Source of the DNA: an uncultured virus (IMG/VR IMGVR_UViG_3300016486_001479)
Taxonomy: Duplodnaviria > Heunggongvirae > Uroviricota > Caudoviricetes
Length of the DNA: 20,000 nt
Virus record (IMG/VR): IMGVR_UViG_3300016486_001479
Direction: 5' to 3' (one strand)
Shown: piece by piece, positions 1 to 14,265 of the stretch
Position numbering within the stretch: the first letter of the stretch is position 1
Layout: every line of letters begins with the position of its first letter
Translations under genes and position numbers: made by a program
Notes under the pieces: model-generated
Told to the model about the DNA's origin: nothing
The model's database searches: none
Seen by the model: only the letters and a program-made list of their open reading frames with translations

Positions 1-351
1 CATTCAAAAGTGAGAGAAAGAGTTACACGAGATGGTTTATCTATCACTCACATGATTGGAAGATATGATTCTGGAAACGGAAGAAGAATTCCACTAAGTG
101 ATATATTAGTCGAAAATTCAACTTACTCTAATATTGCTAGACTGAAAATTAGGTTAGTAAATGAAGGGTTTTTAGAGTATAAATGTGTCAGTTGTAGTAA
201 TGAAGGCGATTGGATGGGTAATCCAATAGTTTTGCAATTAGACCATAAGAACGGAGTTCGTGATGACCATAGGTTGGAAAATTTAAGATTTATGTGTCCT
301 AATTGCCACAGCCAAACAGCAACATTTGGAGGTAAAAACTGTAGAAAATAG
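1..351 (+). CDS. HNH homing endonuclease, 5'-partial (frame is open to the window edge)
   Basis: CxxC (CVSC), LQLDHKNG..DHRLENLRFMCPNCHSQT: classic HNH motif of phage tRNA-cluster-associated endonucleases. Confidence 0.9.
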   Translation, partial: HSKVRERVTRDGLSITHMIGRYDSGNGRRIPLSDILVENSTYSNIARLKIRLVNEGFLEYKCVSCSNEGDWMGNPIVLQLDHKNGVRDDHRLENLRFMCPNCHSQTATFGGKNCRK

Positions 352-377
352 TCAGTTCGAACCCTACTATGCCCACA
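351..377 (+). pseudogene. 3' remnant of a tRNA (T-loop plus acceptor 3' strand)
   Basis: gtcag-TTCGAAC-cctac-tatgccc-aca directly abutting the HNH stop; the T-stem 5' strand is mismatched and no 5' half is visible. Confidence 0.55.
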
Positions 378-389
378 CTACAACTTTAT

Positions 390-518
390 GGGGAGTGTTT
401 TATTACACTTACTCTTTCTAGCGTTACCTGCATAGCAGTGTTGAAGAACAGAGTTACTTCGGTTCAATTTTTTGCTAAACACAAGAATAGATAGGTTCGA
501 TTCCTATACTCCCCACCA
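390..518 (+). ncRNA. tRNA-shaped, circularly permuted Y-RNA-like RNA (copy 1)
   Basis: Acceptor GGGGAGT(390-396)/ACTCCCC(508-514)+ACCA; perfect T-arm ATAGG-TTCGATT-CCTAT; no D or anticodon arm. Instead ACTCTTTCTAGCGTTACCTG-cata-GCAGTGTTGAAGAACAGAGTTACTTCG, a motif repeated at 2243-2293 and 2360-2422. Confidence 0.7.
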
Positions 519-581
519 TCTTGCTATGATGGATTGTGACCAAGAGGGGCCACCCGATGACAATCACAAACAGGGTTTGAC

Positions 582-1358
582 GTGCTCCGAAACGGAGATT
601 TGTTTAATGAGATGCCGATACCAGAGCTAATGCGTATGGTTTCTTCTTTTTCAATTCAAAACATGCTATCCAGAGACGCATTTAAAGCTAGAATGGACCG
701 AGAGCAACCAATTGCTATCCACGAGCTTTTAGTCCCAATTCTTCAAGGCCATGATAGCGTCCATTTGAGGACTGAGATTGAAATTGGAGGTTCAGACCAA
801 TTGTTCAACTTCACCATTGCCAGACGAATGCAAGAACTTGATGGCCAGAAGCCGCAAGTGAGTTTGATGGCTCCAATTATTCGAGGAACAGACGGAAGGA
901 AGATGTTAAAATCATTCGACAACTGTATCTTCCTTGATGGAACCCCAGGAGGCACTTTCGGGGCCTGTATGAGCATATCTGACGCTGTAATGGACGAAGA
1001 GTTCATTCCACTCCTAACAGACCTAAAAACCTTTCCTGAGAGCCCCGTATTGAGAAAGAAAGCTATGGCCAAAGATATTGTTCGCCAGATTCACGGCCAA
1101 GAGGCTGCAGAGCGGGCTCAATCGGGATTCGAGAACCAGGTTCAGAAGAAAGAAATCCCAGCTGTTATTAAAAATATTGAAGCAAAAGACTTGATTCAAG
1201 CTGTAGTTGCAGTCAGAGATTGTAGCAACTCAGCAGCAAGAAGATTGATTTCAGAAGGAGGTGTTCAGGTGGAAGGAGGTGCGGTAACTGAAAACGGCCC
1301 AGTAGAGTCGGGTCAGGTTGTCAAAGTTGGCAAAAGAGAATTCGTTAAGATTTTATAA
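582..1358 (+). CDS. tyrS: Tyrosyl-tRNA synthetase, N-terminally truncated (no HIGH motif)
   Basis: PILQGHDSVHL..EIEIGGSDQLFN, KMLKS (KMSKS-like), C-terminal S4 domain (SNSAARRLISEGGVQV..VKVGKR); in-frame TGA at 558-560 limits upstream extension. Confidence 0.85.
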   Translation: MLRNGDLFNEMPIPELMRMVSSFSIQNMLSRDAFKARMDREQPIAIHELLVPILQGHDSVHLRTEIEIGGSDQLFNFTIARRMQELDGQKPQVSLMAPIIRGTDGRKMLKSFDNCIFLDGTPGGTFGACMSISDAVMDEEFIPLLTDLKTFPESPVLRKKAMAKDIVRQIHGQEAAERAQSGFENQVQKKEIPAVIKNIEAKDLIQAVVAVRDCSNSAARRLISEGGVQVEGGAVTENGPVESGQVVKVGKREFVKIL

Positions 1359-1611
1359 GTATCAACCCCTCTGATTTATTGACCTAATAAGAGCTGTAGA
1401 AACACCATTTATTGATTGAATTTGACTCAGAGTTCTTTGGCTTTTAGATTGAATACCAGATATTGGAGCTATTTCTTGACTATCGGTATAATAAACTTTC
1501 AATGCACAACCACGACTTGCATTGCAATTGGTGTTCCCACACAGAGAGACTTCTATGTCAATCCAAATCTGCCTGGTCACATCTGCCCAGATAGCAGACA
1601 GTCGTTGGGGC
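1132..1611. repeat. ~480-bp direct duplication, copy 1 (copy 2 at 3474-3963)
   Basis: Near-identical sequence from agaaccaggttcag onward; copy 1 accumulates single-base deletions just before the N gap at 1612-1631. Confidence 0.95.
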
Positions 1612-1650
1612 NNNNNNNNNNNNNNNNNNNNTCAAAACAAAACACATTCA

Positions 1651-1776
1651 ATGTTCAACTTTACAGACATAGCGATTTCAAACCAACCGATGCCGATGGC
1701 AGCGACTGGCTGTGCGCCCGATTATAGCGGGAGCAAGCAGAATGACCTGGTTATGTCTAAACTGAACAACAGTTGA
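1651..1776 (+). CDS. Putative 41-aa leader peptide of an attenuator
   Basis: ATG after an A-rich leader; MFNFTDIAISNQPMPMAATGCAPDYSGSKQNDLVMSKLNNS; its 3' end overlaps the antiterminator strand. Confidence 0.6.
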   Translation: MFNFTDIAISNQPMPMAATGCAPDYSGSKQNDLVMSKLNNS

Positions 1777-1817
1777 TGTAGAGACATAAACCATTAGGGA
1801 AAACCCCCAGGTCATTC
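1740..1817 (+). promoter_or_regulatory. Antiterminator hairpin, alternative to the terminator
   Basis: GAATGACCTGG (1740-1750) is an exact copy of the terminator 3' arm (1826-1836) and is complementary to CCAGGTCATTC (1807-1817). TGGTTATGTCT (1748-1758) pairs with AGACATAAACCA (1782-1793). Confidence 0.7.
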
Positions 1818-1847
1818 AATCAAACGAATGACCTGGGGGTTTTTTTT
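1800..1847 (+). terminator. Rho-independent terminator (attenuator) upstream of the tRNA array
   Basis: AAAACCCCCAGGTCATTC-aatcaaac-GAATGACCTGGGGG-T8. Confidence 0.9.
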
Positions 1848-1893
1848 GTTTCTGGACTCAACGGAGCCAGAAGATTAATTGAAATATTAATAT

Positions 1894-1967
1894 CGGGAGG
1901 AAGTGCAGTCAGGTAGCACGGGGCATTTGGGATGCTCAGGTCGAGGGTTCAAATCCCTCTCTCCCGA
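1894..1967 (+). tRNA. tRNA-Pro(UGG)
   Basis: Acceptor CGGGAGG/TCTCCCG, anticodon arm GGGCA-TTTGGGA-TGCTC, T-loop TTCAAAT. Confidence 0.9.
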
Positions 1968-2036
1968 CACAAAGTGTTAGTTTACAAGAGTTTCTAGTAA
2001 ATGTCCACACGAGTAGGAGTTTTTGAAAACAATAAG

Positions 2037-2052
2037 AGTTCTTTGACATATT
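2037..2052 (+). promoter_or_regulatory. boxA-like antitermination site
   Basis: GAGTTCTTTGACATAT resembles rrn boxA; a similar AGTTCTTTGAA precedes the large RNA at 17912. Confidence 0.5.
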
Positions 2053-2120
2053 GATAATAAAGTTAATTAAAAAACCCAAGATATTACACCGATGTAATCG
2101 TCATAATATCTTGGGAAAAT

Positions 2121-2194
2121 GGTGGCGCATCATATTGGCGCATGTTGCCTCCCTGTCACGGAGGAGATTGAGGATTCGAATTCCTTCGTCACCG
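2121..2194 (+). tRNA. tRNA-Asp(GUC), atypical D-arm
   Basis: GGTGGCG/CGTCACC+G, CCTCC-CTGTCAC-GGAGG, T-loop TTCGAAT. Confidence 0.85.
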
Positions 2195-2226
2195 CTTTGG
2201 TGCATTAAAGTACCACAATTTATTAT

Positions 2227-2345
2227 GGGGAGGAATAATTAATACTTTTTCGCTTTTTACCTGGCAACAGTGTTGATAGAAAGAGTTACTTCGAAAATTA
2301 GTATCATAAACTATAATTGCAGATTAAGACCTGCCCTCCCCACCA
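2227..2345 (+). ncRNA. tRNA-shaped, circularly permuted Y-RNA-like RNA (copy 2)
   Basis: Acceptor GGGGAGG/CCTCCCC+ACCA; degenerate T-arm GCAG-attaagac-CTGC; internal TACTTTTTCGCTTTTTACCTG-GCAA-CAGTGTTGATAGAAAGAGTTACTTCG closed by a GNRA tetraloop. Confidence 0.65.
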
Positions 2346-2355
2346 TATTTAAAAA

Positions 2356-2426
2356 TTTTCAGTGTTGAAAGAAGAGTTACTTCGTTATAGGAACATAAAA
2401 TCACTCTTCTTAGAATTACCTGAAAA
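2356..2426 (+). ncRNA. Minimal Y-RNA-like RNA in canonical (non-permuted) order
   Basis: TTTTCAG/CTGAAAA terminal stem, CAGTGTTGAAAGAAGAGTTACTTCG...CACTCTTCTTAGAATTACCTG; AAGAAGAGT/ACTCTTCTT is a perfect 9-bp helix. Confidence 0.65.
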
Positions 2427-2429
2427 AAT

Positions 2430-2503
2430 GGTGGCGCATCATATTGGCGCATGTTGCCTCCCTGTCACGGAGGAGATTGAGGATTCGAATTCCTTCGCTA
2501 CCG
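2430..2503 (+). tRNA. tRNA-Asp(GUC), near-identical paralog of 2121-2194
   Basis: Identical except the acceptor 3' strand CGCTACC vs CGTCACC; both pair. Confidence 0.85.
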
Positions 2504-2550
2504 CCCTTGGTCATTTACGCTTATGACCTTAATAAACAAAAAAACGACAC

Positions 2551-2626
2551 GGTGTGGAGGTGTTGATGGTAACATTTGTCCCTGTCACGGATGAGATTGT
2601 GGGTTCGACTCCCATGCACACCGCCA
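2551..2626 (+). tRNA. tRNA-Asp(GUC) with encoded CCA
   Basis: GGTGTG/CACACC+GCCA, TGTCC-CTGTCAC-GGATG, GTGGG-TTCGACT-CCCAT. Confidence 0.85.
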
Positions 2627-2750
2627 ATTCAATCTTAGGTGCCTTAGGTAGCCGAGTCGCTTCGTCAGCGAAAAAGGACTCACTGAGATGTAGGCGCATT
2701 GAGCGTCGCATTAAAGGCTTGGGGATGACGCCCTGAGATTGATTGTTTAT

Positions 2751-2825
2751 GGGGTTGAAGCATGTGCTGGCTAATGCATCTGTCTGGCAGACAGAAGACC
2801 GTGGGTTCAATTCCCATCTTCTCCA
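2751..2825 (+). tRNA. tRNA-Ala(GGC)
   Basis: TCTGT-CTGGCAG-ACAGA; G3:U70 Ala determinant present; two U-U mismatches in the acceptor stem. Confidence 0.8.
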
Positions 2826-2918
2826 CAATAAAAGATTAAAGAAAACAGGATATGCGACGAGCGTCTGGTGGGTATTCCCCTCATCAGGTTAAGCCGTTGG
2901 GGAACATGTCCTGCTAAT

Positions 2919-2993
2919 GGGGATGTAGCTCAATTGGCTGAGCGGCTGCCTTGCACGTAGCGTCGTATGTGGGTTCGAGTCCCATCATCTCCA
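2919..2993 (+). tRNA. tRNA-Ala(UGC)
   Basis: GGGGATG/CATCTCC+A with G3:U70, canonical D-arm, GCTGC-CTTGCAC-GTAGC, TTCGAGT T-loop. Confidence 0.92.
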
Positions 2994-3097
2994 CAAATTC
3001 CAAAACGGCTCGAATCCGTTGCAGAGAGAAGGCCTCTACTCTGCCCAGTTGTTCGCGACATGCTGGTCCTTGGTTGGTGAGGAATCAATTTTTAAAT

Positions 3098-3187
3098 GGG
3101 AGTGAGGCAACTATCGGTTGTGTTGTGCCAGGTTGTAACCCTGGTCCCTCTGGGTAAACGTTGGGGGTTCGAGTCCCTCCACTCTCA
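3098..3187 (+). tRNA. tRNA-Tyr(GUA)
   Basis: GGGAGTG/CACTCTC+A, CCAGG-TTGTAAC-CCTGG, long variable arm CCC-TCT-GGG. Confidence 0.85.
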
Positions 3188-3251
3188 CATGGCAGTCATG
3201 CCACTTTCTTCGGAAGTAACCTCAATAGGGGTTGTGAAAAATGACTATTAT

Positions 3252-3342
3252 GGAAGTGAGGTCGACTATCGGTTGTGTCGCACTAGACTGTAAATCTAGT
3301 CCCTTTGGGTAAACAATGGGGGTTCGAGCCCCTCCGCTTCCA
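3252..3342 (+). tRNA. tRNA-Tyr(GUA)
   Basis: GGAAGTG/CGCTTCC+A, CTAGA-CTGTAAA-TCTAG, variable arm CCC-TTT-GGG. Confidence 0.88.
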
Positions 3343-3473
3343 CTTTGATTTCATAAACAAAAGTAACAGTTATGAAATCTTTGTTACTTTTGTAGTCTAT
3401 TTATAGTAAATTAAAAACTTGTGAGTAGAAAAGGAAAGGTTGACCTACAGTCAGTAAGTGATTTTAAAGTCAT

Positions 3474-3963
3474 AGAACCAGGTTCAGAAGAAAGAAATCC
3501 CAGCTGTTATTAAAAATATTGAAGCAAAAGACTTGATTCAAGCTGTAGTTGCAGTCAGAGATTGTAGCAACTCAGCAGCAAGAAGATTGATTTCAGAAGG
3601 AGGTGTTCAGGTGGAAGGAGGTGCGGTAACTGAAAACGGCCCAGTAGAGTCGGGTCAGGTTGTCAAAGTTGGCAAAAGAGAATTCGTTAAGATTTTATAA
3701 GTATCAACCCCTCTGATTTATTGACCTAATAAGAGCTGTAGAAACACCATTTATTGATTGAATTTGACTCGGAGTTCTTTGGCTTTTAGATTGAATACCA
3801 GATATTGGAGCTATTTCTTGACTATCGGTATAATAAACTTTCAATGCACAACCACGACTTGCAATTGCAATTGGTGTTCCCACAACAGAAGAGACTTCTA
3901 TGTCAAATCCAAAATCTGCCTGGTCACCATCTGCCCAAGATAAGCCAGACAAGTCGTTGGGGC
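3474..3963. repeat. Direct duplication copy 2 (tyrS 3' end plus 3' part of the 3704-4336 gene)
   Basis: Matches 1132-1611; this copy keeps the minus-strand gene in frame. Confidence 0.95.
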
Positions 3964-7398: not shown

Positions 7399-8046
7399 AT
7401 GAAATTCAACAACAGAGACAATGAAGTCGTAGAAGCAAAAGATGGACGCAAATTCTGGAACTCTAGAAGCTGTGCAGTAACGTCAATTGTGATAATGCGA
7501 GTAGGCAAGTGGTACCAGAGAAAGAAGTATTTCCTACTGACCACTCTAAGAGGTAAAGACACACCTGACTTTCAAGGTTATAGATGTTGCCCATGCGGGT
7601 ACTTAGATTGGGATGAGCCACTTCATTACGCAGCCGTTAGAGAGACAGAAGAAGAAACCACGTTCAACCCAATCGACGCTTGGTCATCCAAGACGTATCC
7701 ACTTGATTCTAATGATGATAATTCTAAAAGAGTCAAGATGGGGCTGATTTATGAGAAATATCGAAACGGGCAGCCATTCTATTTAAGTTCGGAGCCATCT
7801 GCGAACAAGCAGAATGTCACAGCTTGCTTCGGAGTGGTGTTTTCAATTCCTGACGAAGAAAGCTTACCGTTGATTAGCGGAGCAAATGTAAACAAGGCAG
7901 ATTTTGAAGAAGTAGCATCCGCAGAATGGACACCTTTTGAAGAGGTAAAGTCCAAAAAGCATAAGTTTGCCTTCAATCACGACAATAGAGCATTGAGTTT
8001 TTTCGATATCTACAAAGCCGCACAAAGTTGGCGGAAACCGTGGTAA
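7399..8046 (+). CDS. Nudix hydrolase (ADP-ribose pyrophosphatase-like)
   Basis: Nudix box GYLDWDEPLHYAAVRETEEETT; C-terminal FAFNH. Confidence 0.85.
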   Translation: MKFNNRDNEVVEAKDGRKFWNSRSCAVTSIVIMRVGKWYQRKKYFLLTTLRGKDTPDFQGYRCCPCGYLDWDEPLHYAAVRETEEETTFNPIDAWSSKTYPLDSNDDNSKRVKMGLIYEKYRNGQPFYLSSEPSANKQNVTACFGVVFSIPDEESLPLISGANVNKADFEEVASAEWTPFEEVKSKKHKFAFNHDNRALSFFDIYKAAQSWRKPW

Positions 8047-8095
8047 AAGAGTTTAAATTATTGTAGCTAACGGATAAATACAAACAAAACTTAAC

Positions 8096-8290
8096 ATGGA
8101 AGAAATAACAATTTACAAATATCAATTAGAAAAGATAAAAGAAGCGTTGAGATTAACAAAGAACATTTATGTAAACAATAAAGATGGCGAAGAAACTTGC
8201 TATGATAGACAAGTGAAATTAGCAGCTTTATATGCTGAGAATGCTTTAAACAACGATAAGGATAAGAAAGTTGATTATATGGGTAATTAG
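8096..8290 (+). CDS. Hypothetical 64-aa phage protein
   Basis: AT-rich ORF with A-rich leader. Confidence 0.65.
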   Translation: MEEITIYKYQLEKIKEALRLTKNIYVNNKDGEETCYDRQVKLAALYAENALNNDKDKKVDYMGN

Positions 8291-8404
8291 CAGTTATTGC
8301 TTACAACGATTTCAACGTAGACTGGGATTCAAAGATTCGATAACTCTAAATCTTACAGCGCAAAAATGATGTATTTTTCACCAAAACAAGTTCAAACATA
8401 AATT

Positions 8405-10552
8405 ATGAGACGAGTACTAATGTTTCTGTTGTTAACAGCAAGTTTTCCTTTGTTTTCACAAACAGACACGACTATTCAAAAAATCGAAATAGCGACTGTG
8501 ACTGCGTATCGCGCAGACCTCAGAGCACCTGTGACATTTAAGAACATCGATAAACAAGAAATCGATAAGGTGAATATGGGTCAAGAGCCGACGGCAATAT
8601 TAAATTACACACCGTCTGTTACAGCTACATCAGACGGAGGAAACTTCTTTGGGTACTCCAGTTTTAGAATTAGAGGAATTGACCAAACCAGAGTCAATGT
8701 GACGCTAGATGGCATCCCTTTAAACGAGCCAGAAGACCAAGGGCTCTATTTCAACAATTATCCAGACTTTTTTAACTCTGTGAGTTCAATTCAAATTCAA
8801 AGAGGCGTTGGAACGTCATCAAACGGAGTGTCTGCATTTGGCGGAAGCATTAACATGACGTCCGCTGACATTTTCGCCCCAAAAAGCCTAGGAGGCGGAT
8901 TTGGGTACGGCTCATTTGGAACTGGTCGGATATATGCGGAATACAACACTGGAAAGAGTGAAAAGGGTTACGGAGCCTATGTTAGAGTTTCCAGCATTGC
9001 AACCGATGGCTTCGTTGATAACGCAAGTCACTTTGGGAAGTCTGCATTTTACGGCGTCGGAAGACAATGGGGTGACAACACGCTGAAGCTGGTTGGATTT
9101 ATTGGAAATCAAGAGAATGGAATGGCCTGGTTGGGTGCGACTCAAGAAATGCTTAACGAATCCCCAACAACCAACGGAAACACTATAGATGAAGACGACA
9201 ACTTCACAAACAGCCTAACATCACTTCAGTACACAAAGTTGACTGGAAACACTAGAGTGAATGCCACAGCTTATTATAGTTACCTAAACGGGAACTATGA
9301 CATCAACCTACGTAACTTTGGAATAGAAGCTTCTCAGAACATTGCATTGCTTCATCATTATTACGGAGGACTTGTTAATGTCACACACTACCTAGACAAG
9401 TTCCAAGTAACATATGGTGTGCATGGAAACCAATTTGACAGACGTCACACAGGTTCTTCCGATATTCCAAACGCAGAAGCGGAAACTGATTCTGATACTC
9501 CAGAATCGGAAATTGATTCTGGTACTCCAGAAACAGAAATTGATTCTAACATTCCAGAATCGGAAATTGATTCTGGTACTCCAGAAACAGAAATTGATTC
9601 TAACATTCTGCCACCTCCATTTAGAAATTATGTGAATACTGGAAACAGACAGACGTTTAGTGGATTTGCGAAAGCAAGCTATGAAATAGGGAAGCTTCGT
9701 CTTTATGGGGACATTCAACAAAGACTAACGAGTTTCACTTATGAAGGAAATCAAGAAATGCCTACACAAGACTGGGCTTTCTTAAACTATCGTGGTGGAG
9801 CAAACTACGAAATAAACAAAAGATACAGCGTTTACTACAGTTACGGCAAAACATCCCGTGAACCAACTAGAAATGATTTGTTTATGGGGAATGATAATTT
9901 AGATTTATCTCTTTACAACGGTGGGATATTTCAAGAAATAACACCAGAAACCGTGCAGGACCATGAGTTGGGGATTAAATTTAACTCAGGTAAATTAGAC
10001 TTTCAAATCAACGGCTACTTTATGGGCTTCGAAAACGAAATCACCCTCTTAGGCGCTATTGGTCCAAACGGATTACAGCTTAGCGGAAACGTAGACAACT
10101 CCTACCGTTCTGGGGTGGAGCTAGACCTAGGCTATAAAGCAACAGAGAGACTAAAATTTACAGCACAACTGACACAGTCTCAAAACAGAATTACTCAAGA
10201 CGATGTGGAGTTCAATCACGTATTGACCCCGAACACCATAGCAAACGCAAGTGTGGAGTACGACATAAAAGACTTCACGTTGGGTATGAGTACAAAATAC
10301 CAAGGAGAAGCGTATTTAGACCTGGCCAACACAGAGCAGATTGATGGGTTTAGTTTATTGAATTTAAGAGCGACTTACCACGCGGAGAGTACAATAGACT
10401 TTTCTTTATTTTTGAACAACGTCACCAATCAAGTTTATAACGCCAGTGGATACACGGTTGATTATGGAGACGGTGGTGTATCCGCTGATGAAGTGAGGTA
10501 TTTTAGGCAAGCAGGATTCAACGCATTTGTGAGCATATCAGTCAAGATTTGA
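8405..10552 (+). CDS. TonB-dependent outer-membrane receptor (vitamin/nicotinamide-riboside uptake type)
   Basis: Signal peptide, plug motifs IRGIDQTRVNVTLDGIPLN and IQIQRGVGTSSNG..GGSIN, beta-barrel ending NNVTNQVY...ISVKI; coupled to pnuC. Confidence 0.92.
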   Translation: MRRVLMFLLLTASFPLFSQTDTTIQKIEIATVTAYRADLRAPVTFKNIDKQEIDKVNMGQEPTAILNYTPSVTATSDGGNFFGYSSFRIRGIDQTRVNVTLDGIPLNEPEDQGLYFNNYPDFFNSVSSIQIQRGVGTSSNGVSAFGGSINMTSADIFAPKSLGGGFGYGSFGTGRIYAEYNTGKSEKGYGAYVRVSSIATDGFVDNASHFGKSAFYGVGRQWGDNTLKLVGFIGNQENGMAWLGATQEMLNESPTTNGNTIDEDDNFTNSLTSLQYTKLTGNTRVNATAYYSYLNGNYDINLRNFGIEASQNIALLHHYYGGLVNVTHYLDKFQVTYGVHGNQFDRRHTGSSDIPNAEAETDSDTPESEIDSGTPETEIDSNIPESEIDSGTPETEIDSNILPPPFRNYVNTGNRQTFSGFAKASYEIGKLRLYGDIQQRLTSFTYEGNQEMPTQDWAFLNYRGGANYEINKRYSVYYSYGKTSREPTRNDLFMGNDNLDLSLYNGGIFQEITPETVQDHELGIKFNSGKLDFQINGYFMGFENEITLLGAIGPNGLQLSGNVDNSYRSGVELDLGYKATERLKFTAQLTQSQNRITQDDVEFNHVLTPNTIANASVEYDIKDFTLGMSTKYQGEAYLDLANTEQIDGFSLLNLRATYHAESTIDFSLFLNNVTNQVYNASGYTVDYGDGGVSADEVRYFRQAGFNAFVSISVKI
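9482..9609 (+). repeat. 27-bp (9-aa) tandem repeat, ~5 copies, within the TonB receptor
   Basis: ETDSDTPES EIDSGTPET EIDSNIPES EIDSGTPET EIDSNIL. Confidence 0.9.
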
Positions 10553-11193
10553 AAGAATTATTTGACATAGAAAATGTGCTTATTGACTTCGGACTCTATC
10601 AACTGAGCTACCTAGAGACCATCGGGACCATCTTCGGACTGGTTTGCGTGTGGCTCGCAGCAAAAGGAAATAGGCACACTTGGACCACTGGCATAGTGTC
10701 AGCTAGTGCGTTTTTTTATCTGTTCTATCAGATAGCTCTTTACTCAGATATGTTTCTGCAGGGCTTCTTCTCCATTACCAGCATATTTGGCTGGTTTATG
10801 TGGAAGCATAAAAAGCATGAAACCCCAATAACCACAGTTAATTTAAAGCATCGATTATTTTTTATGATGCTTATTGTGGTCGCTAGTGTGATATTGGCGA
10901 AACAAATTCAGACTATTCACGTATATTATAGTAGCTGGTTTCCAGAGCCAGCTGCATTCCCTGTAGCTGACGCATTCACAACAGTGTTAAGTGTGGCAGC
11001 TACTTTCTTGTTAATGAATAAGAAACTGGAAGCATGGATTCTCTGGATTATAGTTGACATAATTTCCATCTGGATTTATTTCCAAAAAAGAGTTTGGCTA
11101 GTAGGGGTTGAGTATTGCATATTCTTGTGCATAGCTACTTACGGCGGATACAGATGGTTTAAAATACTGCAAAATGATAAAAGAGATACTTGA
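10549..11193 (+). CDS. pnuC: Nicotinamide riboside transporter PnuC
   Basis: Multi-TM; LETIGTIFGLVCVWL, LYSDMFLQ, DAFTTVLSVAATFLL..KKLEAWILWIIVD. Confidence 0.9.
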   Translation: MKELFDIENVLIDFGLYQLSYLETIGTIFGLVCVWLAAKGNRHTWTTGIVSASAFFYLFYQIALYSDMFLQGFFSITSIFGWFMWKHKKHETPITTVNLKHRLFFMMLIVVASVILAKQIQTIHVYYSSWFPEPAAFPVADAFTTVLSVAATFLLMNKKLEAWILWIIVDIISIWIYFQKRVWLVGVEYCIFLCIATYGGYRWFKILQNDKRDT

Positions 11194-12592
11194 CCAGATT
11201 GCTCAAGAGCCAGGAGACAACGCCAAAGTTGACATCCTGACTTCACACCAAGAAAACACCTTGCTTCAAGAGGTTCTTTATAACGCTCTTTCAAAGCGAG
11301 TTAAGTTTTACATCAAACAGATTCCAAGTTATTCCAGCAATGGAAAAAACATGGGAGTCTCGTGGGGGTTAGAGCAGCTCAAAGAGTTATCCAGGAAAGG
11401 CGGTATAAGAGGCTCTGTGGCAGTTTCACACCTAGCTTATATATTGGCTTCGCTTAGTGATGATGATGCGTATGTCATCGAAAGGATAATTGATAAGCGC
11501 CCAAAGATTGATATGGGTCGAACTCAAATTAACAAAGTGTTCAAAGACCTTATTGAGAAGACTCCTTATATGGGAGCTAAGTCATATGCTGAAAACCTTG
11601 TTAGAGCCATCTTGAAATCAGGCAGAGCAATCAGTCAAATCAAAATGGATGGCCGTTACGCCAATGCTATCATTCGTGGTGGTGAGATTGAACTTGAGTC
11701 TCGTGCTGGAGAACCAACTGTATTAACTGGCGCAGCATTTCTGGAAGAACTTCGAGTCCTGACAGATGAATATGTCCTCAACGGCGAGTTGACTGTGAGA
11801 GGTGTCCCTGCTAGGTCAATAGCCAATGGAATTGTTGCCTCGCTAATAGACATTCAGAAAAAGCGAGAAGACCGTGGCCCCGCAGAAACTTTAAAGAAAG
11901 AGCAAGCATTCTTGAAGAAGCACGCAACCGATTTTGGAACTCCTGATATGAGTTTTCAAAATGCGCTTGATGCAATTGTGTATACGTGTTGGGACATGAT
12001 TACTGTAGATGAATACTACGACAAAAAGTCAACTAGACCATACGAAGAACGTCTTGCTCAATTAGAGGCGATTATTAAAGAAAAGCAGCCAACACGAATT
12101 GACCTGATTGAGTCTCGAATCGTAACGACGTTCAGAGAAGCGATGGAACACTTTCAGGAAGCTCTGGCGTTAGATTTGGAAGGAACAATCGTGAAAGACC
12201 TGGAAGGAGCCTGGAAGGACGGAAAGCCGAATTGGCAAGTGAAAATGAAGCTTGACATGAACATCGACCTAAAAACTGTTCGATATCTATACGGTAATGA
12301 AGGAACGAAAAACGAGAATGTCATCTCAAGAATTGAACTCGCGAGCTCGTGTGGGCTTTTAAAGACAACGTCGTCCAACATGGATGAAGATATGATGACA
12401 TATGTCACTGAAAACCAGGAGGAGCTTAAAGATGCTATTTGGGAAGTGAACTGTAAAGGCTTGAGTCAAAACTCAAAAGGAGAGTGGTCTCTTGCGCATC
12501 CATCTATTGTTAAGGAGCGTGATGATAAAACCACATTTAACTCCCTAGAGGAGGCTAAAGAAATCGAAGAGGCAGCAAAGAGCATTGTATGA
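11174..12592 (+). CDS. ATP-dependent DNA ligase (T4 gp30-like)
   Basis: Motif I KMDGRY, III LNGEL, IIIa YTCWD, IV EGTIVK, V KMK; N-terminal DNA-binding domain. Confidence 0.9.
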   Translation: MIKEILDQIAQEPGDNAKVDILTSHQENTLLQEVLYNALSKRVKFYIKQIPSYSSNGKNMGVSWGLEQLKELSRKGGIRGSVAVSHLAYILASLSDDDAYVIERIIDKRPKIDMGRTQINKVFKDLIEKTPYMGAKSYAENLVRAILKSGRAISQIKMDGRYANAIIRGGEIELESRAGEPTVLTGAAFLEELRVLTDEYVLNGELTVRGVPARSIANGIVASLIDIQKKREDRGPAETLKKEQAFLKKHATDFGTPDMSFQNALDAIVYTCWDMITVDEYYDKKSTRPYEERLAQLEAIIKEKQPTRIDLIESRIVTTFREAMEHFQEALALDLEGTIVKDLEGAWKDGKPNWQVKMKLDMNIDLKTVRYLYGNEGTKNENVISRIELASSCGLLKTTSSNMDEDMMTYVTENQEELKDAIWEVNCKGLSQNSKGEWSLAHPSIVKERDDKTTFNSLEEAKEIEEAAKSIV

Positions 12593-12770
12593 TTACAATC
12601 CTATGAGTTGCAAACGATTAAGATAGGTTTTTGTACATATTTATATGATTTAGCGCAAAACTCACTCATTACTTTTGCGTGGGTGAGGTGTAAGCTTTTT
12701 TTTTGTATATTTAAAAATAAGTTCTACATAAAGTGATGAAATATCACGTAAAAACACAAAGTTAACGATT

Positions 12771-13178
12771 ATGAACAAACATATTCTATTAAAAGAAGGC
12801 TTAACTATGCATAACGTTAAGCTTGACACAAAGCAGGCAGCTCGTCCACCAGCTCCACCAGCTCCGCCATCTCGTCCACCAGCTCCGCCATCTCGTCCTC
12901 CAGCTCGTCCTCCAGCTCGTCCTCCAGCTCGTCCTCCATCTCGTCCTCCATCTCGTCCTCCATCTCGTCCACCAGCTCCTCCAGCTCGTCCTCCATCTCG
13001 TCCACCAGCTCCTCCATCTCGTCCTCCATCTCGTCCACCAGCTCCTCCAGCTCGTCCTCCATCTCGTCCACCAGCTCCTCCAGCTCGTCCTCCATCTCGT
13101 CCACCAGCTCCTCCAGCTCGTCCTCCATCTCGNNNNNNNNNNNNNNNNNNNNNNNNNATTTGTTATACTAACATATAA
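12771..13178 (+). CDS. Possible Pro-rich low-complexity protein (length unreliable)
   Basis: ATG with A-rich leader and promoter-like TATATTT upstream; spans the gap. Confidence 0.35.
12838..13132. repeat. Low-complexity 9-nt-based tandem repeat (CCAGCTCGT/CCATCTCGT/CCT) running into an N gap
   Basis: Open in several frames (Pro-rich on +, E/D-rich on -); gap at 13133-13157. Confidence 0.9.
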
Positions 13179-13248
13179 TTGGAAATAAAATTTAATGCTG
13201 CGTGAAACTTTGTTATTTATTTTTCGTATTTTTCAAAAAGAACATTAT

Positions 13249-14265
13249 ATGAAAAAGTATAAGCGAGGATTAATACTAGGTAAGTTCATGCCAATCACAA
13301 AAGGCCATGAAGCACTTATAGATTACGGCCTTAAGCTTTGTGAGGAAATTATATTGTTGATTTGCACGACTCCGAATGAACCAATCCCAGGCGAGCTTCG
13401 CTATGAATGGGTGCGCCAGATTTATCGAGATAAGCCAGTCATTCCTCTTCATCTTGTATTCGATGAAAGAGACTTGGCCTCAACAAGCGTCCCAGCAAAA
13501 GACATCTCCAAACAGTGGGCAGAACATATTAAATGGTTTATTCCTGAGGTGGACGTTTTTATCTCTTCAGAAAAGTATGGAGAAATGGTTGCGGGGTATA
13601 TGGGGGTGGAGAATGAGTATTTCGACTTAAAAAGGGTGACGGTGGACATATCTGCGACTGAAATACGACAGAATCCATATCTGCACTGGGAAATGCTTTC
13701 TCAACCAATTCAAGACTATTTCTTTAAGAAAGTCATACTGGTGGGAACGGAGTCCACTGGAAAAACAGAGCTAGCTAAACGATTATCTAAGACTTTCAAT
13801 TCAGATTGGGTTCATGAGGTCGGTAGAGACATTGTGCCAGACGCAAGTGCTTGTACAAAAAAAGATTTAATGCGTATAGCTAAGGAGCACGCAAAGAACA
13901 TTATAATTGCGGAACAGAAACGAAATAGAATTCTATTCATTGATACAGATATCAATATCACCAGGTCATACTTTGCGTATATCTTTAAAGAAGACATGCG
14001 AGTGGACGAGTGGATGAAAACAGCTAATAAAGGAGATTTATACCTTTACCTGGAAGCGGACGCTGAATATGTCCAAGATGGAACGAGGCTACCTAAAAGA
14101 GAGCGACTCATACTCGACAAGAGCCACAAGGAGCAGTTAGCATCCCAGGGGATTCAATATTTTAGTGTATTCGGTAAGGATTGGAAAGAAAGAGAAGAAA
14201 TGGCGATGGATATCATCTGCCGACAAATACTACTCCCGAACACAATCAACAAATTAGATAATTGA
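13249..14265 (+). CDS. nadR: Bifunctional NMN adenylyltransferase / ribosylnicotinamide kinase NadR (no HTH; start re-assigned to ATG 13249)
   Basis: GKFMPITKGH (HxGH-type), SSEKYG, ISATEIR, P-loop GTESTGKT, FIDTD, YVQDGTR. Confidence 0.92.
   Translation: MKKYKRGLILGKFMPITKGHEALIDYGLKLCEEIILLICTTPNEPIPGELRYEWVRQIYRDKPVIPLHLVFDERDLASTSVPAKDISKQWAEHIKWFIPEVDVFISSEKYGEMVAGYMGVENEYFDLKRVTVDISATEIRQNPYLHWEMLSQPIQDYFFKKVILVGTESTGKTELAKRLSKTFNSDWVHEVGRDIVPDASACTKKDLMRIAKEHAKNIIIAEQKRNRILFIDTDINITRSYFAYIFKEDMRVDEWMKTANKGDLYLYLEADAEYVQDGTRLPKRERLILDKSHKEQLASQGIQYFSVFGKDWKEREEMAMDIICRQILLPNTINKLDN

Follow-up and report, generated by a model that had tools for sequence, protein, structure and literature searches.

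The 20,000 nucleotides (nt) of uncultured virus DNA analysed here (IMG/VR record IMGVR_UViG_3300016486_001479), referred to throughout as the window and numbered from its first letter, carry within a phage transfer RNA (tRNA) cluster a noncoding element of about 119 nt at positions 2227–2345, named copy B; two related elements, copies A and C, lie on the same (+) strand. We consider it probable that copy B specifies a Y RNA built on a tRNA frame, which would be released from the tRNA cluster, bind a phage Ro60 protein through its closed stem and use its tRNA-like end as an effector or handle. On its letters and predicted fold, the hairpin of this element appears to resemble closely the Ro60-binding part of bacterial Y RNAs, joined in the opposite order from the known forms, and comparison of sequences supports a putative homology between this rod and the Ro60-binding stem of the YrlA-type Y RNAs of bacteria and phages. 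The module that forms this rod is linked by position to Ro60 genes in seven phage genomes of different lineages (five viral records designated G001–G005, LR745206.1 and crAss001). This positional evidence is stronger than that provided by co-occurrence of the module with TROVE (Pfam PF05731), the domain of the Ro60 ring.

The minimum-energy fold of copy B includes an acceptor stem, the helices P1 and P2 and a T-like hairpin (Table 1), and at −30.3 kcal/mol (z −3.93) it is lower than that of any of 200 shuffled sequences. Its rod consists of P1, an internal loop or bulged helix in which UUAC lies opposite GUGUUGA, and P2, and is followed by the invariant UUACUUCG. No anticodon arm is detectable by ARAGORN or by alignment with tRNA chimeras, and neither ARAGORN nor the Rfam tRNA model reports a tRNA at 2227–2345 or at 390–518, the site of copy A. 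Copy A retains a canonical T arm and has no D arm (fold z −2.98 against shuffles), while copy C (z −2.54) contains both helices and the conserved strands of the other two copies in permuted order. The motif GTGTTGA-N2-8-GAGTTACTTCG occurs three times in the window, where the expected number is 0.00 and none of 200 shuffles reaches three. An earlier note, made from the letters alone, had described copy B as a diverged second copy of a permuted Y RNA/tRNA chimera, and each sequence feature that it listed for copy B is borne out, together with the architecture common to copies A and B. The seventh acceptor pair is G-C in copy B and T-A in copy A, a change on both sides; P2 is CTG-GCAA-CAG in copy B as against CTGC-ATA-GCAG in copy A; and the T loop of copy B has degenerated through loss of TTCGA, while copy A keeps TTCGATT. 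Both copies encode ACCA, although CCA is encoded by only one of the eight ordinary tRNA genes of the window (2551–2626). Comparative evidence likewise supports the proposal that these elements may be circularly permuted Y RNA/tRNA chimeras.

The same note had argued that two diverged copies with a conserved structure speak against an artefact of assembly, and an assembly chimera is refuted by agreement of contigs across four of four sequencing runs and with a separate viral record. Between 80 and 95% of sampled words from positions 1640–3500 are contained in 24 salt-lake DNA runs. Contigs from all four of the salt-lake runs concerned span 2178–2454 with zero differences, three extending back to position 2159 or further, and one contig bridges 1822–2447. 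The viral record G001 (141 kb, holding 27% of the words of the window) carries copies B and C letter for letter.

TROVE was found in all five of the module-holding viral records tried first (G001 and four jumbo phages, G002–G005), and in six of ten module-holding records compared with two of ten large records without a match to the module pattern. In G001, the nearest relative of the window, the protein possesses TROVE together with the Ro60-specific vWA domain. In G001–G005, the noncoding 400–700 nt or so just upstream of the Ro60 gene contain RNAs on the same strand as the gene, which fold into a terminal stem P2, an internal loop, a 9-bp P1 and a loop opening with UACUUCG. The order is P2, loop, P1 and UUACUUC(G/A), and the strands read CCAG-UAGUGAG-UUAGAGAGU-UACUUCG and ACUCUUUGA-CAAUUUACU-CUGG. 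UAGUGA, AGCGA and UGCGA of the Ro-adjacent RNAs align with AGTGTTGA of copy B. P1 of these RNAs shows a two-sided change from A-U to U-A between G004 and G005, as read from the folds; the second Ro-upstream RNA carries AGCGAUAGUUUGAGAUACUUCG, with AGCGAU present in the version found in G002–G005. Copy C of the window shares the exact architecture of the Ro-upstream RNAs, its fold matching that of the Ro-adjacent RNAs of G002–G005.

Across G001–G005 the word RGWGTTACTTCR has 17 matches, as opposed to one for a reversed control, and the matches lie on one strand per genome. They comprise the Ro-adjacent RNAs, modules embedded in tRNAs, further copies in tRNA clusters and one apparent coding match (L243). 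Two of the tRNA-cluster copies, L241 and L244, follow the published YrlA order of a Y-stem strand, T arm, closed 9-bp acceptor-like stem, D arm and second Y-stem strand. At L242, L245 and L246 (from G003, G005 and G004, respectively) a tRNA scoring 45–51 bits has the Y-stem strands as its leader and trailer, which together form a Y-type stem that extends the acceptor stem.

A separate observation concerns the interval that follows the Ro-upstream RNAs. Four jumbo phages share a conserved noncoding block of about 200 nt with a terminator (L232 at about 700–880, and L233–L235); it separates the Y-like RNAs from the start codon of Ro60, and no Rfam family matches it at expectation values (E) up to 1.

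Homologues of the G001 Ro60 protein are encoded in 99 cultured or curated phage records. In LR745206.1 (635 kb; 50% identity) the same two Ro-upstream RNAs are present, their strands having been read rather than folded. The earlier note had proposed a search for homologues with a covariance model; such a model, built only from tRNA-embedded modules, was run on the whole 102,679-bp genome of crAss001 at E up to 1 and gave exactly two matches (E 0.037 and 0.29), 315 and 557 nt downstream of the TROVE gene. Both fall within an unannotated 900 nt between that gene and the next, and both are chimeras. The first is a tRNA (46.6 bits with the Rfam tRNA model) with an 82-nt insert in the anticodon stem that contains P1, a GUAA-capped P2, GUGUUGG and GAGUUACUUCA. 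The second combines an acceptor stem GGGGATG/CATCCCC and a T arm GTTGG-TTCGAGT-CCAAC with the module and has no D arm, which is the D-armless acceptor/T design of copies A and B. The TROVE gene of crAss001 is an early gene according to the available text of PMC8375218. The chimeras lie, unannotated, at 3528–3671 and about 3782–3922 of the crAss001 sequence (L248, MH675552.1), directly downstream of TROVE gp96, and a third stretch bearing GACTTACTTC is found near 3370. The Ro gene of Gordonia phage Neville is preceded by four RNAs in tandem, each with GAUGCG(A/U)AG, then 7 or 8 nt, then GUUACUUC, a word common to these RNAs and to the window module; with the Rfam YrlA model one of the four scores 44.1 bits (E 3.6e-7), short of the gathering score of 69.

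A further record, G016, contains no module and was one of the controls for the model. Its TROVE gene (C1:105002–105895) lies about 600 nt from a tRNA gene (106505–106639), and Ro60 genes beside tRNA clusters may be common.

The module itself belongs to a sizeable family. Pattern scans found 18 and 20 loci in viral contigs and 63 in metagenome contigs, with no match among 185,579 prokaryote species, each represented by a single genome: the module is confined to phage-like DNA. There are 57 distinct sequence contexts, of which 52 can be parsed as tRNA genes that the module interrupts, two (L092 and L100) are truncated or variant examples of the same kind, two are copies A and B of the window and one (L069) looks unrelated. 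A less biased scan anchored on the tRNA, with a pattern that retained TTCG, gave six loci, namely five known copies and L108, which has an unrelated insert. When the full chimera was compared by blastn with 50,697 cultured-phage records, only T-arm matches were returned; crAss001 was instead identified through its Ro60 protein. With the covariance models, copy B scores 61 bits, all invariant module columns being kept, and copy A 53.8 bits (model R1), both as training sequences.

Covariation was counted over 14 pairs in an alignment of 30 distinct modules. Pairing is maintained in 94.7% of pair cells, compared with 45–58% when partners are slid by one to three columns; six of the 14 pairs change on both sides (17 cells), and none of 500 shuffles reaches any of five measures. 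At the third P2 pair, 22 modules have C-G, four G-C, three U-A and one U-G, and P2 is closed by a GNRA cap in 47 of 54 copies. The words TTACCT, AGTGTTGA and GAGTTACTT were letters of the search pattern, so their invariance is not evidence, whereas the helices were unconstrained by it. The module is a selected, covarying RNA structure, as the claim of selection made from the window copies had anticipated.

The placement of so many copies inside tRNA genes raises the question of whether the module is excised from the transcript as a small tRNA intron or mobile insertion, copies A and B being tRNA genes that decayed around a surviving intron. This was the leading idea until TROVE was found in G001–G005. 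In the 52 parsed metagenome and viral copies the tRNA gene is interrupted after position 24 or 28, and ARAGORN calls a tRNA in two of 52 with the module in place and in 51 of 52 after its scripted removal. The interrupted tRNAs are varied (Asn-GTT, Lys-TTT, Pro-TGG and a class I tRNA with anticodon TGA): the main family, with the module after position 24, has an acceptor strand GGGGATG or GGGGAGG and a D arm GCTCAGTGGTAGAG, while Asn-GTT, Lys-TTT and one other tRNA carry it after position 28. Other phage tRNAs, moreover, have unrelated inserts, as in L108 and in the introns of Lak phages described as “enigmatic” in the available text of PMC6784885. We nevertheless think an intron quite unlikely, since the module also occurs without exons, in Y topology beside Ro60 genes and as copy C, and remains intact in copies A and B, which receive no tRNA call, and in the second crAss001 chimera, which has no D arm. 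At E up to 10 the sequences show no match to group I or group II introns or to any family of self-cleaving ribozymes, RtcB is encoded in none of five holder genomes, and no bulge-helix-bulge is obvious by eye at the junctions in relatives, although no formal search was run. Decoding does not look conserved either, because in ten of the 52 tRNAs the length of the anticodon loop departs from 7 nt and the commonest anticodon, TGA (33 of 52), stands on a body that lacks the long arm of a Ser tRNA. Insertion into tRNA genes and binding of Ro60 are, in any case, not mutually exclusive.

Some individual members of the family are of separate interest. L070 and L083 are near-identical module-bearing tRNA genes, alike in flanks, acceptor and T arm, that differ in CTGTTAA (Asn) as against CTTTTAA (Lys), which looks like an anticodon switch. 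The main-family copy L096 has the anticodon TTA, which would read the UAA stop codon, and is called tRNA-Stop by ARAGORN after module removal. L108 (61–175), on a 42-kb viral contig, is a tRNA-Ile(GAT) whose unrelated insert of about 60 nt stands between the D and anticodon arms and repeats part of the anticodon stem-loop sequence.

A number of observations weigh against reading copy B as a Ro60-binding Y RNA. The 20-kb window contains no TROVE gene, and some 48 kb separate copies B and C from the Ro60 gene in G001. TROVE was not found in four of the ten module holders (estimated to be 12%, 37%, 68% and 94% complete); in the last of these, G013, a protein search was also negative, which speaks against strict dependence of the module on Ro60. 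Nor does Ro60 need the module, since the module model finds nothing in three control phages, among them the TROVE-positive G007 and G016. Out-of-sample matches to the model are individually weak (14–23 bits, E 0.02–1). The Rfam YrlA model (RF02553, gathering score 69 bits) has no match in window positions 300–3500 at E up to 10, and the exact YrlA motif GNCGAAN0-1G is absent, its place being taken by GUUGAUAG in copy B, GUUGAAG in copy A and GUUGAAAG in copy C. Of the 24 runs that contain the locus, none is on record as RNA, and copy B is found only as identical copies in one phage lineage.

Because copy B is known from identical copies in a single lineage and its T loop is degenerate, it could be a decaying copy, that is, a nonfunctional duplicate of a tRNA/module chimera. 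The missing D and anticodon arms and the lack of RNA runs agree with such a view, and with identical copies alone selection on copy B is not measurable. We regard decay as unlikely, given that all seven acceptor pairs are kept, with a two-sided change relative to copy A, that ACCA and every invariant column of the module are retained, and that none of the 200 shuffles reaches so low a folding energy. The same D-armless layout, furthermore, adjoins the Ro60 gene of crAss001.

A different possibility is that the module is functional but independent of Ro60, acting as a processing or stability signal of phage tRNA transcripts, as the site of another protein or as an undescribed ribozyme. G013, with a module and no detectable Ro60, would fit this, and the module strands that flank ordinary-looking tRNAs (45–51 bits) as leader and trailer at L242, L245 and L246 would suit a role in precursor processing. 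Natural circular permutation is typical of small ribozymes. The positional link to Ro60 genes in seven phage genomes of different lineages makes such independence very unlikely in our estimation, as do the agreement of motif order with that of published Y RNAs (PMC4201824) and the lack of a match to any Rfam ribozyme family.

The favoured assignment as a Y RNA built on a tRNA frame invites comparison with YrlA. Chen et al. 2014 (PMC4201824) define that class by the motif GNCGAAN0-1G close to the 5′ end, where Rsr probably makes contact, by a YUAY that is conserved, by stem-loops of the T and D types and by a position adjoining the Ro60 gene. Phage examples include those of Bacillus phage G, CcrColossus and mycobacteriophages (PMC4201824), and YrlA has been likened to a tRNA in circular permutation, whose acceptor stem is closed and which offers no free CCA (Wang et al.). 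Copy B is similar in that a Ro60-binding type of stem is combined with a tRNA-like domain and in that its relatives adjoin Ro60 genes. YUAY is present as UUAC at 2286–2289, invariant in 30 of 30 copies as letters of the search pattern, and UUAC is also found in Ro-adjacent RNAs, which that pattern did not select; on the 3′ strand of the module GUUGA is followed by UUAC 8 nt after the GA, in the order of the YrlA motif and YUAY. The motif core, in contrast, is CGA in YrlA and UGA in the window RNAs, where U replaces the C in copies A, B and C and, in copy B, also the second A. The RNA ends of YrlA lie in the Y stem and its acceptor is closed, whereas copy B has a Y stem closed by GCAA and an open acceptor ending in ACCA; copy C has half of the YrlA topology, its ends pairing into a Ro60-type stem. 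Where YrlA has T and D stem-loops, the T loop of copy B is degenerate and its D arm missing, and copy A retains a T arm only. In G001 copies B and C are not adjacent to the Ro60 gene; homologous modules do flank Ro60 genes in G001–G005, LR745206.1 and crAss001. Although YUAY is present, Rfam score, motif, topology and D arm all differ, and copy B is therefore best described as a new topological variant related to YrlA rather than a member of that class. RF02553 also misses the phage Y-like RNAs L241 and L244 (159–306).

Other known RNAs share some parts of this design. The Yrl1 and Yrl2 RNAs of Thermus phage phiLo (PMC12135203) are phage Y-like RNAs upstream of a phage Ro60 gene; from the available text they have a stem formed by 5′ and 3′ ends and a bulge with the protein-contact motif, a simple layout shared by copy C and the Ro-adjacent RNAs of G001–G005, and they form a complex with phage Ro60 and host PNPase. 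They differ, by description and not by sequence comparison, in having CGAA and in that the same text mentions no tRNA part. Yrn1 of D. radiodurans is also partly tRNA-like, with a T arm as well as an anticodon-like arm of 5 bp closed by a 6-nt loop. Since the order of its tRNA parts differs from that of YrlA, topological variety among Y RNAs is already on record, but the ends of Yrn1 remain in the Ro60-binding stem and leave no free acceptor end. Transfer-messenger RNA (tmRNA) and the tRNA-like structures of plant viruses place an acceptor stem, T arm and CCA on a foreign domain, without a Ro60 module; such CCA-bearing tRNA-like RNAs can be processed, and in those cases charged, like tRNA (Wang et al., introduction). 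The inserts in tRNA genes of Lak megaphages resemble the module as conserved inserts that bacterial tRNA finders miss, a likeness of description and not of sequence, and the available text of PMC6784885 draws no link to Ro60. Both Y RNAs that include tRNA-like domains and the pairing of Ro60 with a Y RNA in phages have been described before. In the literature covered, which included few subscription journals, we found no Y RNA with an open, CCA-ended acceptor and a closed stem, no insertion of a Ro-type stem into complete tRNA genes, no UGA variant of the motif and no tRNA/Y RNAs in crAss-like or large lake phages.

Four further motifs were considered for the rod by eye and set aside. GUGUUGA resembles the RUGAUGA of a K-turn or box C/D element, but there is no GA before P2 on the other strand. 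Loop B of the hairpin ribozyme has only UAUUACCUGG-like letters in common with the module. The UAC near the tyrosyl-tRNA synthetase (TyrRS) gene, which might suggest a T-box specifier, is also invariant in contexts unrelated to Tyr. An IS608-type TTAC target or DNA hairpin transposon is disfavoured by G-U pairs and a single orientation relative to the tRNAs, which favour a structure in the RNA strand.

If the Y RNA assignment is right, copy B would be cut from a polycistronic tRNA transcript by the enzymes of tRNA processing, with RNase P acting at the 5′ end and the CCA already encoded. The rod would bind the Ro60 protein of the phage itself, and the tRNA-like end would act as an effector or handle, tethering Ro60 to a partner that recognises tRNA or to host PNPase. 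Tethering of Ro60 to PNPase by a Y RNA is described, including the complex of phage Ro60, Yrl RNA and host PNPase, in the available text of PMC12135203.

Across the family the module is attached to tRNA-like bodies in four ways. It takes the place of the anticodon arm under a closed acceptor at L241 and L244; it forms leader and trailer atop the acceptor stem at L242, L245 and L246; it is an extra arm after position 24 or 28 of otherwise complete tRNAs in 52 copies; and it is joined to a D-armless acceptor/T minihelix with a free CCA in copies A and B and in crAss001. The bodies include full tRNAs as well as forms that end in a free CCA. The joining of a Ro60-type stem to tRNA bodies in several topologies suggests that it is the linkage that matters, rather than the order of the modules, which bears on the questions of why Y RNAs mimic tRNA and what the tRNA-like half contacts (Wang et al., discussion). 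A more far-reaching proposal, which we hold to be doubtful, is that the Ro60-binding stem is a free module on tRNA bodies in every connectivity, the open-ended forms being processed, CCA-tailed and perhaps aminoacylated so as to couple Ro60, with host PNPase, to tRNA or the translation machinery early in infection. These forms could, on the same proposal, also be living intermediates in the origin of YrlA from tRNAs. crAss001, in which two unannotated chimeras lie beside an early TROVE gene, offers a culturable test system. Because tRNA finders and the Rfam YrlA model miss them, such RNAs are undercounted in inventories of phage tRNAs and noncoding RNAs.

Table 1. Parts of copies A, B and C and the flanking tRNA genes, in window coordinates.
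Feature	Position	Strand	Basis or remark
Copy B, acceptor 5′ strand GGGGAGG	2227–2233	+	7/7 pairs with 2335–2341
Copy B, A/T-rich 10-nt linker in the place of a tRNA D arm	2234–2243	+	D arm missing in alignment with full tRNA chimeras
Copy B, P1 5′ strand ACTTTTTC	2244–2251	+	8 bp with 2279–2286, one G-U; minimum-energy fold
Copy B, internal loop 5′ side, ending in TTAC	2252–2260	+	TTACCT columns invariant in 30/30 distinct copies (letters of search pattern)
Copy B, P2 CTG-GCAA-CAG with GNRA cap	2261–2270	+	CTG 2261–2263, GCAA 2264–2267, CAG 2268–2270
Copy B, internal loop 3′ side TGTTGATA, proposed Ro60-contact strand and counterpart of YrlA GNCGAA	2271–2278	+	AGTGTTGA invariant (letters of search pattern)
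Copy B, P1 3′ strand GAAAGAGT	2279–2286	+	Minimum-energy fold; P1 covaries across the family
Copy B, tail TACTTCG (GTTACTTC with preceding GT), counterpart of YrlA YUAY	2287–2293	+	Invariant; same word in Gordonia phage Neville RNA
Copy B, A/T-rich 25-nt spacer in the place of anticodon arm and variable loop	2294–2318	+	Unconserved
Copy B, degenerate T-arm hairpin GCAG-ATTAAGAC-CTGC	2319–2334	+	Minimum-energy fold; aligns to T arm of copy A and tRNA chimeras
Copy B, acceptor 3′ strand CCTCCCC (2335–2341), discriminator A and encoded CCA (ACCA 2342–2345)	2335–2345	+	Sequence, fold
Copy A, same design as copy B	390–518	+	Acceptor GGGGAGT/ACTCCCC; ACCA 515–518
Copy A, P1; P2 CTGC-ATA-GCAG; TGTTGA; TACTTCG	411–419 with 445–454; 428–438; 439–444; 455–461	+	Sequence, fold
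Copy A, canonical T arm ATAGG-TTCGATT-CCTAT	491–507	+	Sequence
Copy C, module alone in canonical Y topology	2356–2426	+	RNA ends form P2, 2359–2362 with 2419–2422
Copy C, TGTTGA; P1; TACTTCG at the opening of the 25-nt loop	2363–2368; 2369–2377 with 2403–2411; 2378–2384	+	Fold
tRNA-Asp-like gene 5′ of copy B	2121–2194	+	Rfam tRNA 35.8 bits
tRNA-Asp-like gene directly 3′ of copy C	2430–2503	+	Rfam tRNA 35.5 bits

The eight ordinary tRNA genes of the window comprise six found by ARAGORN and the two tRNA-Asp-like genes found with Rfam. The upstream tRNA-Asp-like gene probably shares a transcript with copy B, and the RNase P site of the downstream one would set the 3′ end of copy C. ARAGORN finds no tmRNA in the window, and the Rfam permuted tmRNA matches (22.1 and 13.5 bits) are away from the copies and below the gathering score. 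A promoter scan was uninformative, with three sites against 3.0 expected.

The whole tRNA/Y RNA cluster is bracketed by a perfect 300-nt direct repeat (1132–1431 and 3474–3773), which spans the 3′ end of the TyrRS-like open reading frame (ORF) and 73 nt beyond. At 3474 contigs from two runs stop and those from two other runs cross, and the repeat could reflect an insertion with duplication or an effect of scaffolding. A run of N occupies 1610–1631, between the two copies of the repeat. The window opens with an HNH endonuclease ORF (1–351), followed by copy A and then by ORF 582–1358, which matches only positions 90–288 of the class I Tyr/Trp synthetase domain; an insertion carrying the HNH gene seems to have split or truncated the synthetase gene. 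The cluster contains two tRNA-Tyr genes.

Further along, positions 7399–14265 hold a cluster of genes resembling those of NAD salvage, with a NUDIX protein, a TonB-dependent receptor, a PnuC transporter of NMN, an ATP-dependent DNA ligase and a NadR-like cytidylyltransferase with AAA_28, and this cluster suggests a Bacteroidota host. ORF 12771–13178 encodes proline-rich repeats of the PPAPPSR type and runs into a gap of N.

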